Shown: in pieces, positions 21,004 to 24,172 of the stretch | Layout: the number at the start of each line of letters is the position of its first letter | Position numbering within the stretch: position 1 is the first letter of the stretch | NCBI GenBank assembly: GCA_017396145.1 | Contig: JAFQMS010000017.1 | Span: forward strand, 491-64,490 | Length of the DNA: 64,000 bases | Origin: Lachnospiraceae bacterium | Lineage (GTDB): Bacteria; Bacillota; Clostridia; Lachnospirales; Lachnospiraceae | Direction of reading: 5' to 3' | The notes under the pieces: model-generated | What the model was told of the DNA's origin: nothing | Seen by the model: only the letters and a program-made list of their open reading frames with translations | The model's database searches: none | Program-made: the position numbers and the translations under genes

Positions 21004-21791
21004 CTCTCTCTCAATGTATTTTTCATACCATCTATTATAGTATTTCTTGCCTCAATAGCCCTGTCTTTATCCAAGGCAGGAGTGTCGCCTAGAGGGTATT
21101 TAATTCCAAGTTTTGTGTATTTTGTTTTGCCTAAAGTGTGGTACGGGAGAACATCTAAAGCCTTTATATTGTCAAGGGTACCTAAAAACTGTCCCAGTTT
21201 ATAAAGGTATTCTTTGTTGTCTGTTATACCCGGAACTACTACATGACGAATCCATACAGGGATATTCTTTTTCTTAAGATAGTTAGCAAATTCTATTATG
21301 TTGTTGTTTTTCTGATGAGTGAGTTCATAGTGCCTCTCGTTATCTATGTGTTTTATATCTAGTAATATCAGATCTGTAACATTGATAAGGCGTTCAAATT
21401 TGCTTAATACATCCTGGTTGTCGGGGTTAAAGGTTATTCCTGAAGTGTCAAGACAGGTGTGAATTCCCCTTGCCTTACATTCTGTGAATAAATCTGTAAC
21501 AAATTCTATCTGCATAAGGGGCTCGCCACCGGTAACAGTAATTCCACCATCATGCATAAATTCTTTATAACTATCATATTCTTCTAAAAGTTCTTCTACA
21601 CTTTTGATTGTGGAACCATGGAGATTGTCTTCGCTGGCAAGTTGCCAGGTATCAGGATTGTGACAATACTTACAACGCATAGGACAGCCCTGCAAAAAGA
21701 TTACAAACCTTATGCCAGGGCCGTCCACTGTTCCAAAACTTTCAGTTGAATGAATAAATCCAGTACTCTTTAATAGATTAGATTGATTCAT
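20982..21791 (-). CDS. pflA: Pyruvate formate-lyase activating enzyme (radical SAM)
   Basis: [13 protein letters not shown] cluster motif, GGEPL, and the typical PflA length. Confidence 0.92.
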
Positions 21792-22014
21792 GGAATGTTC
21801 TTGATATTACATCATCTTGCTGCTCTTTAGTCAACTTGATGAAGTTAACTGCGTATCCTGATACACGCACTGTAAGCTGAGGATAATTCTCAGGATGTTT
21901 TTGAGCATCCAATAGAGTTTCTTTTGTAAATACATTAACATTTAAATGATGTCCACCCTGCTGAGTGTAACCGTCTAATAATGATACTAAGTTTTCTACC
22001 TGTTGTGTTGCCAT
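21778..22014 (-). CDS. Stand-alone glycyl-radical domain of pyruvate formate-lyase (GrcA/YfiD-like, 78 codons)
   Basis: [10 protein letters not shown]...[31 protein letters not shown] includes the RVSGY glycyl-radical motif. It has its own AGGAGG (22022-27) 7 nt before the ATG. Confidence 0.85.
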
Positions 22015-22063
22015 AGTTCTACCTCCTACATTATTGTATTTATTTGTGTTGTAATATAATGAA

Positions 22064-24172
22064 TTATTCGTTGTCTATTGACTCGTGGATATTAGGTATA
22101 TTACATGCGCTATTACCACAGTCTACAAGAGCATCTAAGTCCAATTCTCCGGCAAATAACTGATCATCCTTTCCAAGTGCGCCAGGAACAATAGAGAAGG
22201 TATTTGATATACCGTCCTGGGCATAGCGGAATGGAAGTTTGGCTACTGAAGCTAAAGATGCAGCAGCACCGTGAGTATCTCTTCTGTGCATTGGATTAGC
22301 ACCAGGAGCTAAAGGCTCTCCCATAAGTCTTCCGTCAGGTGTATTACCAGTCTTTTTACCATATACCACGTTTGAAGTGATGGTAAGTATTGACATAGTT
22401 GGGAAACTGTCTCTGTATGTGTGGTGCTTTCTTATTTTTTCCATAAAGTTTTTTACAAGACTAACGGCAATCTCATCAACGCGGTCATCGTTGTTGCCAT
22501 ATTTTGGATAATCTCCTTCAATTTCGTAATCTGTTACAATGCCGTCTTCGTCTCTAACTGCTTTAACCTTTGCATATTTTATTGCTGAAAGAGAGTCTGC
22601 AACTACGGAAAGACCTGCAATACCTGTTGCAAAATATCTCTTAACATCTCTATCGTGGAGAGCCATCTGAATTCTTTCGTAGCAATATTTATCGTGCATA
22701 TAATGGATTACATTAAGTGTATTAACATATAGACCGGCAAGCCATTCCATCATATCGTCGTACTTTTGCATTACATCATCATAATCAAGGTAATCGCCTT
22801 CAACAGCGCGGTATTTTGGACCTACTTGAATTTTGAGTCTTTCATCTACACCACCGTTGATAGCATAAAGAAGACATTTTGCAAGGTTTGCTCTCGCACC
22901 AAAGAACTGCATTTCTTTACCAATTCTCATTGAGGATACACAACAAGCAATTGCATAGTCATCGCCATGAATATCTCTCATAACATCATCATTCTCGTAT
23001 TGTACTGAAGATGTCTTAATTGAAGTCTTTGCACAGAATTCCTTAAATGCTTTAGGAAGTTTGGTTGACCATAAAACAGTCATATTTGGTTCTGGAGCAG
23101 GACCTAAGTTGGTTAAGGTATGAAGGAAACGGAAAGAACTCTTTGTTACTAATGGTCTTCCATCGATACCAATACCACCGATAGATTCTGTTACCCAAGT
23201 ATGGTCACCGGAGAATAATGCATTATATTCAGGAGTACGGGCAAATTTTACAAGACGAAGCTTCATAACGAAGTGGTCAATATATTCTTGTGCCTGTTCT
23301 TCTGTAATTACTCCGTTCTTTAAATCTCTTTCAATGTAAATGTCTATGAATGTTGAAGTTCTACCAAGACTCATTGCAGCACCATTTTGCTCCTTAACAG
23401 CAGCAAGGTAACCAAGATATAACCACTGAATTGCTTCTTTAGCGTTGGCAGCAGGTCTTCTGATATCAAAACCATATATTTCTCCAAGTTTAGCAAGTTC
23501 ATCCAATGCGCGAATCTGCTCTGAAAGTTCTTCTCTAAGTCTAATGTTTTTAGAAGTCATTCTTATTAAAGCAGTATCAAGTTGTTTTTTCTTGTCTTCA
23601 ATAAGATAATCTATACCATAAAGAGCAACTCTTCTATAGTCACCTATAATTCTACCGCGACCATAGGCATCTGGAAGACCAGTAATGATAGCAGACTTTC
23701 TTGCAAGTCTCATCTCTGGGGTATACACGTCAAATACACCCTGATTGTGGGTCTTTCTATATTTGGTGAAAATATCAACAACACTTGGATCAATCTCATA
23801 ACCGTTTTCTTTACAAGCGTTAATAGCCATTCTGATTCCGCCGTTTGGCTGAAGTGAACGCTTTAATGGTTTGTCAGTCTGAAGACCAACAATTTGCTCT
23901 AAATCTTTGTTGATATAGCCTGCATCATGAGAAGTAATTGTTGAAATAATCTTTGTGTCCATATCCAGAACACCACCGGCTTCTCTTTCCTGTTTAAATA
24001 GTTCCGAAACCTCTTCCCAAAGTTTTTTGGTATTAGTAGTAGGTTCTGCAAGAAAATCTTCATTTCCCTCATATGGTGTATAATTAAGCTGGATAAAGTT
24101 ACGTACATTTACGGAACCATTATTCCAGCGGCCTTCTTTAAAGCCATTCCATTCGTCTTTTACTATTTGCAT
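22064..24172 (-). CDS. pflB: Pyruvate formate-lyase (formate C-acetyltransferase), large fragment lacking the glycyl-radical domain
   Basis: Active-site [12 protein letters not shown]. Conserved through ...[12 protein letters not shown], then 32 unrelated codons and TAA. Confidence 0.9.

Follow-up and report, generated by a model that had tools for sequence, protein, structure and literature searches.

No glycyl radical enzyme is more widespread than pyruvate formate-lyase (PFL), which is vulnerable to oxygen in that its chain is cleaved irreversibly at the radical glycine. In E. coli, the small protein YfiD (GrcA) serves as a spare radical domain that rescues the damaged enzyme. In the present study, we analysed a PFL locus in a stretch of 64,000 nucleotides from a Lachnospiraceae bacterium (GenBank assembly GCA_017396145.1, contig JAFQMS010000017.1, positions 491 to 64,490; the whole stretch is termed the window below), in which the catalytic body and the glycyl radical domain of PFL are encoded by two separate open reading frames (ORFs), followed by the activase gene pflA. 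Judging from its sequence, the locus is with high probability a working operon for an obligately two-chain PFL.

The closest described systems are E. coli PflB with GrcA/YfiD (PDB entries 1h16, 2pfl and 6owr) and the phage T4 protein Y06I; as in the window, a small free protein completes a PFL body. The small protein of the window belongs to the GrcA3 family, and shares with the YfiD-type proteins the β10 strand, the RVSGY radical loop, the C-terminal helix and the same activase. Unlike in E. coli, the body encoded in the window never has a radical domain of its own, and the small protein would be permanently required as a subunit instead of serving for repair. Moreover, GrcA3 lacks the 60-residue disordered N-terminus of YfiD, the split point falls after residue 678 (E. 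coli numbering) and not at 695 or 733, and the body ends in a tail with two cysteines that has no counterpart in E. coli. The engineered pair tPFL(1-695):truncYfiD(61-127), once activated, equals the wild type in activity, with a reported kcat of 204/s compared to 105/s for intact PFL (PMC8683613).

A June 2026 review of glycyl radical enzymes lists no case other than the YfiD-type spare parts, leaving obligately split PFLs unmentioned, and our literature search yielded no publication that deals with GrcA3, a split PFL or the cysteine arm described below. The NCBIfam family NF038360 covers the small protein only; literature and database searches yielded no description of the truncated partner, of its tail or of the third gene that occurs in many relatives. 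The window is the fused-arm variant of a widespread, essentially undescribed system, whose small protein is already recognised by the databases.

The divided PFL and its operon

The minus strand carries three tightly packed ORFs, namely those of the PFL body, the 78-aa radical module and PflA. The coordinates given in the initial annotation for the body, the end of its PFL homology (KDD), the TAA stop, the Shine-Dalgarno (SD) sequence, the ATG, the intervening 148 nt and the small ORF were all confirmed. The features are as follows:

22064..24172 (-): PFL body ORF, 702 aa, composed of a 670-residue catalytic part and a 32-residue tail
22163..24172 (-): PFL catalytic body, residues 1-670, equivalent to E. 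coli PflB 10-678
22940-22945 (-): active-site pair Cys410/Cys411 in IACCVSSM
22067..22162 (-): 32-residue C-terminal tail, Q671-E702, defined by conservation in homologues
22073-22120 (-): two-cysteine arm within the tail
22064..22066 (-): TAA stop of the body ORF, the same in six independent contigs
22015..22063 (-): AT-rich intercistronic spacer, 49 nt
22022-22027 (-): SD sequence AGGAGG, 7 nt before the ATG at 22012-22014
21778..22014 (-): grcA3, 78-aa glycyl-radical module, full-length match to NF038360
21856-21858 (-): codon of the radical Gly53 (RVSGYAV)
20982..21791 (-): pflA, PFL-activating radical-SAM enzyme, match to TIGR02493

The 702-aa body scores 1119 bits against the formate C-acetyltransferase model TIGR01255 (cut-off 994.2), covering positions 1-664 of the 744 in the hidden Markov model (HMM), and the remaining positions 665-744 are found on the 78-aa ORF. 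The Pfam domain PF01228 (Gly_radical, 106 positions) is likewise split in its middle, with positions 2-50 on the body and 52-106 on the small ORF. In the alignment with E. coli PflB (1h16; 1025 bits for the body using phmmer), the body covers residues 10-681 and the small ORF residues 683-758. The PFL homology of the body stops at ...ALGKDD, where the codon of Asp670 ends at position 22163. The catalytic residues Cys410 and Cys411 correspond to C418 and C419 of E. coli and are invariant in 55 homologues, and the RVSGY radical domain, which the definition of a PFL places on the same chain, lies outside the body polypeptide. The AlphaFold2 model of the body (mean pLDDT 76.7, from a multiple sequence alignment of 55 rows) is PFL-like, with a TMq of 0.89 to 2pfl_A, and comparison of the window with three orthologous loci gave omega values of 0.03-0.09 for the body. 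Once activated, the split enzyme is predicted to convert pyruvate and CoA to acetyl-CoA and formate.

The 78-aa ORF matches the NCBIfam model NF038360, "autonomous glycyl radical cofactor GrcA3", with 165.4 bits (cut-off 158) over positions 2-78 of 78. This model (rad_fix_GrcA3) is applied by the NCBI pipeline PGAP, and is thus already in use in NCBI annotation. The ORF falls below the threshold of the GrcA model TIGR04365 (96.2 bits versus 170, residues 17-78 matching model positions 65-126) and also below that of the GrcA2 model. It aligns to residues 683-758 of PflB and 67-127 of YfiD, such that R50-V-S-G53-Y-A-V stands opposite G734 of PflB, and it consists of a helix, the β10 strand GGHHLNVNV, the radical loop RVSG53YAV and a C-terminal helix. 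Identity to named GrcA3 members is 85-90%, and several of the matches bear the GrcA3 label in RefSeq (Lachnoclostridium phytofermentans, Mordavella, Faecalimonas and Mobilisporobacter). Homology and the position of the gene beside pflA suggest that PflA would generate the radical on GrcA3, thereby conferring PFL activity.

The third gene, pflA, is intact and begins inside the 3' end of grcA3, with an overlap of 14 nt, in agreement with the initial annotation; the same overlap occurs in the contigs L015-L020 (see below) and in the related locus L061. Its product scores 302.5 bits against TIGR02493 (PFLA, cut-off 231.75), also matches Radical_SAM and Fer4_12, and contains the radical-SAM cluster motif CPMRCKYC. 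Of the 148 nt between KDD and the ATG (22015-22162), 96 nt are coding sequence under constraint, the remainder being the stop codon and an unremarkable intercistronic spacer of 49 nt, in which we found neither a terminator-like site nor an Rfam match. The pflB body with its cysteine tail, grcA3 and pflA form a single three-cistron operon, all parts of which are strongly selected.

GrcA3 proteins are numerous. In a collection of 5.8 billion proteins, at least 8000 clusters (at 90% identity) of proteins of 43-136 aa match the family. Among 401 genomes, one for each genus of the family to which the window belongs, 165 (about 40%) contain a GrcA3 match at E <= 1e-43 and 134 contain one above the curated cut-off; nearly all of these matches lie in open frames of 80-150 aa. 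Outside this family, GrcA3 was also seen in two genomes of the order. Four genomes that are nearly complete (G003, G004, G015 and G022) contain a free GrcA3 as their sole genome-wide match to the radical-domain model. The split enzyme is thus the only PFL-type glycyl radical enzyme of these bacteria.

Some genomes (G057, G105, G165, G271, G330, G337, G353 and others) harbour two free-standing GrcA3 genes on different contigs; some of the duplicate copies are apparently distant from any PFL body and are possibly true spares. One GrcA3 homologue (P0001, 111 aa, from an ENA contig of 2305 nt) contains an internal tandem duplication, in which the first copy of the radical loop ends after the Gly. 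The duplication either stems from assembly or is a present-day instance of the partial duplications behind the locus.

The two-cysteine tail, the middle protein and the phylogeny of split bodies

The last 32 codons of the body had been described in the initial annotation as unrelated to the rest of the gene. This was incorrect: they encode a conserved tail under selection. It comprises an acidic stretch, F673-x-G675-E-L-D678-L-D680, followed by the two-cysteine arm, C685-GNSA-C690-N-I-P693-N-I-H-E-S-I-D700. In a search with residues 640-702 of the body, the best 120 listed homologues (of about 700 aa) cover the tail fully, and the 56 distinct tails among them all hold one pattern. Its first part reads A-L-G-K-[DE]-D-x-x-F(98%)-x-G(100%)-[ED]-L-D(98%)-x-D(96%), and its second part C-x(mostly 4-5), A(94%)-C(100%)-x-[IV]-P(100%)-[NT]-[IL]-x-[ED]-[SG]-x-D(98%), with the end of the chain 11-16 residues past the second cysteine. 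When the DNA of the window was compared with that of the three orthologous loci, the nonsynonymous divergence (dN) of the tail was 0.15-0.28, far below the saturated synonymous divergence (dS), and omega was about 0.07 in the sole pair for which dS could be estimated. As judged from this conservation, selection maintains the 32-residue tail as part of the enzyme.

The relatives of the locus indicate where the tail belongs. In nine of the 12 related loci first fetched, an extra ORF of about 67-89 aa is located between grcA3 and a shorter body, which ends in ...FAGDLDIDLxx; in one of the nine (L004), this middle ORF is cut short ahead of the A-C-x-VPTL part of the arm. The consensus of the middle protein is M..(K)..IDDIV.MLD.FMA.GGGH.NV.V....K.VQT.GC.DC....LAC.VPTLHEGLD. 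Its first half reproduces the start of GrcA3 (21.9 bits over positions 5-34 of the GrcA3 family HMM; NF038360 itself matches the N-terminus at E 2e-6 to 0.035), and its second half carries the two-cysteine arm in place of the radical loop. The family comprises 2021 clusters, every one of them annotated as "hypothetical", and neither the middle protein nor the tail matches a Pfam or NCBIfam family. A separate, full-length middle ORF is present in about 110 of the 401 genus representatives. An ORF scan of the window detected no separate ORF of about 70 aa with a GrcA3-like N-terminal half. Of 17 further GrcA3-positive genomes without a strong match to the middle ORF, 12 have the arm or a close variant fused to the body, one (G058) has a Cys-Cys tail only, in another two the middle ORF is separate but divergent, and the last two lack a cysteine motif.

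The tail of the window aligns to positions 47-67 of the 70-position middle-ORF HMM with 11.7-12.2 bits. The score of 12.2 bits, obtained with a profile of the C-terminal half, compares with 4.2 for the best of 200 shuffled sequences, and other fused tails score 21-28 bits. On this evidence, the tail and the C-terminal end of the relatives' middle ORF are homologous, and the split PFL occurs in a three-gene form and in a two-gene fused form, to which the window belongs. The two forms have in common the body clade, GrcA3, pflA and the arm, C-x(n)-A-C-x-[VI]-P-[TN]-L-x-x-G/S-x-D. In contrast to the three-gene form, the arm in the window is fused in frame to the body, and the GrcA3-like helix and strand (IDDIV.MLD.FM..GGGH.NV.V) are absent.

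It had also been suggested that the tail loosely echoes the segment LVSLLDGY...GGHHLNVNV of the small protein, as a hint of a decayed duplication. The echo is at chance level, as the tail scores -0.6 bits against the GrcA3 HMM and 61 of 300 shuffled sequences do equally well or better. A partial duplication of the radical domain did prove to be real, but it is seen in the gene of about 70 aa in the relatives and not in the proposed echo in the window. The G-E-L-D-L-D segment was also considered as a mimic of the β10 strand, and was rejected since it does not score above shuffles.

In three loci (L032, L035 and L021, the last from G058), the body ends past the acidic FAGDLE/DxD stretch with neither arm nor middle ORF, except for the Cys-Cys tail of G058. 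In one of these (L035, G182:C48), an insert of 1038 nt separates the body, which lacks the Cys motif, from grcA3.

A maximum-likelihood tree was constructed from the last 322 residues of the body core of 42 sequences. A single clade (support 93/92) contains all split bodies together with two intact PFLs from the same family, and intact PFLs of the order's other families form its sister group. A second lineage of intact PFLs is placed far from the split clade (100/100), and is carried by a genome of the same genus as the window. In approximately unbiased (AU) tests, a single origin of the split was not rejected (p-AU 0.097), whereas monophyly was rejected both for the fused type (p-AU 3e-5) and for the three-gene type (p-AU 0.002); these p-values are weakened in that the groups were named after the tree had been seen, although they are defined by features outside the alignment. 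Because neither type is monophyletic, the fused and three-gene layouts have interconverted several times, or the operon has recombined. Such a fusion/fission pair argues for a cysteine arm that acts physically with the body.

A few intact PFLs of 750-775 aa (L040 from G232 and L041 from G013, and also those of G334, G149, G119 and G179) bear C-termini that resemble GrcA3, with scores of up to 162 bits, and are placed inside or next to the split clade. They either predate the split or arose by re-fusion, and a single split clade without them was not rejected in the AU test (p-AU 0.097). The genome of the same genus (G001, locus L048) contains no GrcA3 and has an intact PFL of the distant lineage (NPDALGH...EYANFTIRVSGYAVKF). 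Either the type of PFL varies within the genus or one of the two was acquired by transfer.

Alternatives to a two-subunit enzyme

The initial annotation had offered two readings of the divided gene, a naturally two-subunit PFL or a recently disrupted one. The first was strongly upheld and the second was rejected, in view of the conservation across many genera, the purifying selection, the conserved SD sequence and ATG of the small ORF, and its membership in a curated NCBIfam family. The exact 78-aa protein was found in six contigs of separate metagenome assemblies (L015-L020), which share the TAA, the 49-nt spacer, the SD sequence, the ATG and the overlap with pflA. One of them (L018) represents a distinct strain, with five single-nucleotide polymorphisms in the 500 nt compared and the frame kept. 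Since six independent contigs share the junction, the split is not an assembly artefact. The source of the window is indeed a fragmented metagenome-assembled genome (52 contigs, 58.5% complete), in which errors of assembly or sequencing might be expected, but the same kind of gene is also carried by isolate genomes, e.g., that of Lachnoclostridium phytofermentans, and the chance of an artefact is negligible. Disruption of pflB by a recent insertion, with the pieces now decaying as a pseudogene, would account for homologous parts that lie 148 nt apart, the second in another frame, and in an incomplete genome another PFL could compensate for the loss. Such decay is very improbable, however, given the identical architecture across many genera, the low omega of the body, the constraint on the tail, the intact state of the GrcA3 radical residues, the catalytic Cys pair and pflA, and the retention of the SD sequence and ATG in every relative examined. 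As to whether relatives share the 148-nt stretch, a check proposed in the initial annotation, they do so for the tail pattern and for the SD sequence and ATG, but not for the spacer, which varies in sequence and length (51, 67 and 86 nt in close relatives, versus 49 in the window). A GGAG-type SD sequence is located 6-10 nt ahead of the ATG in all 12 relatives. The two ORFs might also yield a single polypeptide by programmed read-through combined with a frameshift, or by RNA processing across the spacer, as they lie 49 nt apart on one transcript with no terminator between them. Recoding would nevertheless require the read-through of four in-frame stops (three TAA and one TAG) plus a +1 shift. 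Among the relatives, the frame offset is 0, 1 or 2 and the spacers extend from 12 to more than 400 nt with variable sequence, so that there is no conserved recoding signal; a strong SD sequence and an ATG are always present, and no Rfam element was found in the spacer. We consequently assign very little probability to a single polypeptide. A somewhat larger probability, although still a small one, attaches to the proposal that GrcA3 only serves as a replacement domain for an intact PFL from another locus, with a truncated body that is non-catalytic or a regulatory relic. The NCBI name, "autonomous glycyl radical cofactor", implies such a role, some genomes (e.g., G009) hold both a split locus and an intact PFL, and the genome of the window is incomplete. 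These points are countered by the four nearly complete relatives in which free GrcA3 is the only radical domain, by selection on the body as strong as on a working enzyme together with a score above the PFL equivalog cut-off, and by the invariable position of grcA3 between the body and pflA.

Several observations weigh against an obligately two-chain enzyme with a functional tail. The two parts of the engineered E. coli enzyme bind each other weakly, and the complex is poorly activated (PMC8683613). AlphaFold2 gave no confident placement of the tail (residues 653-702 have pLDDT values below 50, with 27-38 in the tail). In a read-through fusion of 801 aa modelled for L063, an orthologous locus with both ORFs in the same frame, for which the stops were read as residues, residues 653-801 again fell below 50; in this case, the GrcA3 homologues were unaligned in the multiple sequence alignment. 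The split bodies of L032 (G370) and L035 (G182) are devoid of the cysteine motif, which, on the available sequences, indicates that some lineages can do without the arm or obtain it from another source. Finally, only this PFL is seen in the genome of the window, which at its level of completeness could contain a second, intact one, and the genome of the same genus carries an intact PFL of another lineage. On balance, the gene comparisons strongly support the split as that of a naturally two-subunit enzyme, neither a broken gene nor an assembly error.

Proposed mechanism, related structures and surroundings of the locus

In the proposed mechanism, the 702-aa chain would supply the barrel without its last strand, together with the Cys410/Cys411 catalytic pair. 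GrcA3 would dock into this body and bring the missing β10 strand and the finger loop with Gly53, the equivalent of Gly734 in E. coli. PflA would then place the radical on Gly53, probably once GrcA3 has docked. By analogy with YfiD/GrcA and the engineered tPFL:truncYfiD pair, cleavage by oxygen at the glycyl radical would cost the cell only the 78-residue piece, which could be replaced.

Cleaved E. coli PFL requires residues 696-733 for the binding of YfiD and for activation (PMC8683613). Since the natural split enzyme does without this segment, the tail, or the middle protein in the relatives, is an obvious candidate for an aid to docking or activation. Our best guess, which is a tentative one drawn from this analogy, is that the cysteine arm recruits or holds GrcA3, or else covers the empty site of the radical domain. 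Less likely, the arm could be a thiol/disulfide latch (sensing oxygen or redox state) or a radical-quenching cap, and would gate the docking, activation and exchange of GrcA3. Should this latch or cap exist, it would regulate the enzyme by a principle that has no known precedent among glycyl radical enzymes.

Two PDB entries named "Formate acetyltransferase", 38la and 38lb (687 and 739 residues), match the body of the window with 1134 and 1131 bits, respectively. The sequence of 38la ends in ...SLVPNSLGKED, exactly at the split point, and that of 38lb continues past ...ALGK into a different cysteine-containing tail (GECDMCEMKE...). Compared with the 401 genus representatives, 38la is at most 79% identical to any. 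No GrcA3-like chain was present among the PDB sequences searched, and no paper was found for either entry. As both are absent from a structure library ending on 8 April 2026, they are recent. From their chain ends, 38la and 38lb look like natural split bodies, which suggests that such enzymes are already being worked on.

If the two-chain enzyme operates as proposed, many gut and rumen Lachnospiraceae would have made the radical domain a permanently separate subunit that is cheap to replace. The locus would then offer a natural experiment on the docking of the radical domain, on the access of the activase to the glycine and on the role of the "extra strand" segment (residues 696-733 in E. coli). 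The cysteine arm, whether on the body or on a third protein, would be part of a very abundant fermentation enzyme. With regard to annotation, it would be wrong to mark the body as a truncated pseudogene, and GrcA3 is to be treated as a subunit.

The operon is flanked by two further sequence features:

24280..24468 (-): AT-rich upstream region with promoter-like hexamers (24441-24468 and 24280-24308), a putative assignment from a consensus scan
20968..20994 (strand not assigned): palindromic GC-rich hairpin at the 3' end of pflA, from a terminator-like scan (10 pairs, 6 GC)

In the consensus scan, the promoter-like hexamers of the upstream region were no more numerous than in shuffled sequences. 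The hairpin is likely a terminator shared with the convergent gene at 19351-20940 (+), which codes for a 529-aa HMGL-like (aldolase/carboxylase-type) protein. On the other side, the genes of a TatD-family hydrolase and a DUF3810 protein (24487-26335, +) are divergent from the pfl operon, and this TatD-DUF3810 synteny is retained in the close relatives L061 and L062.

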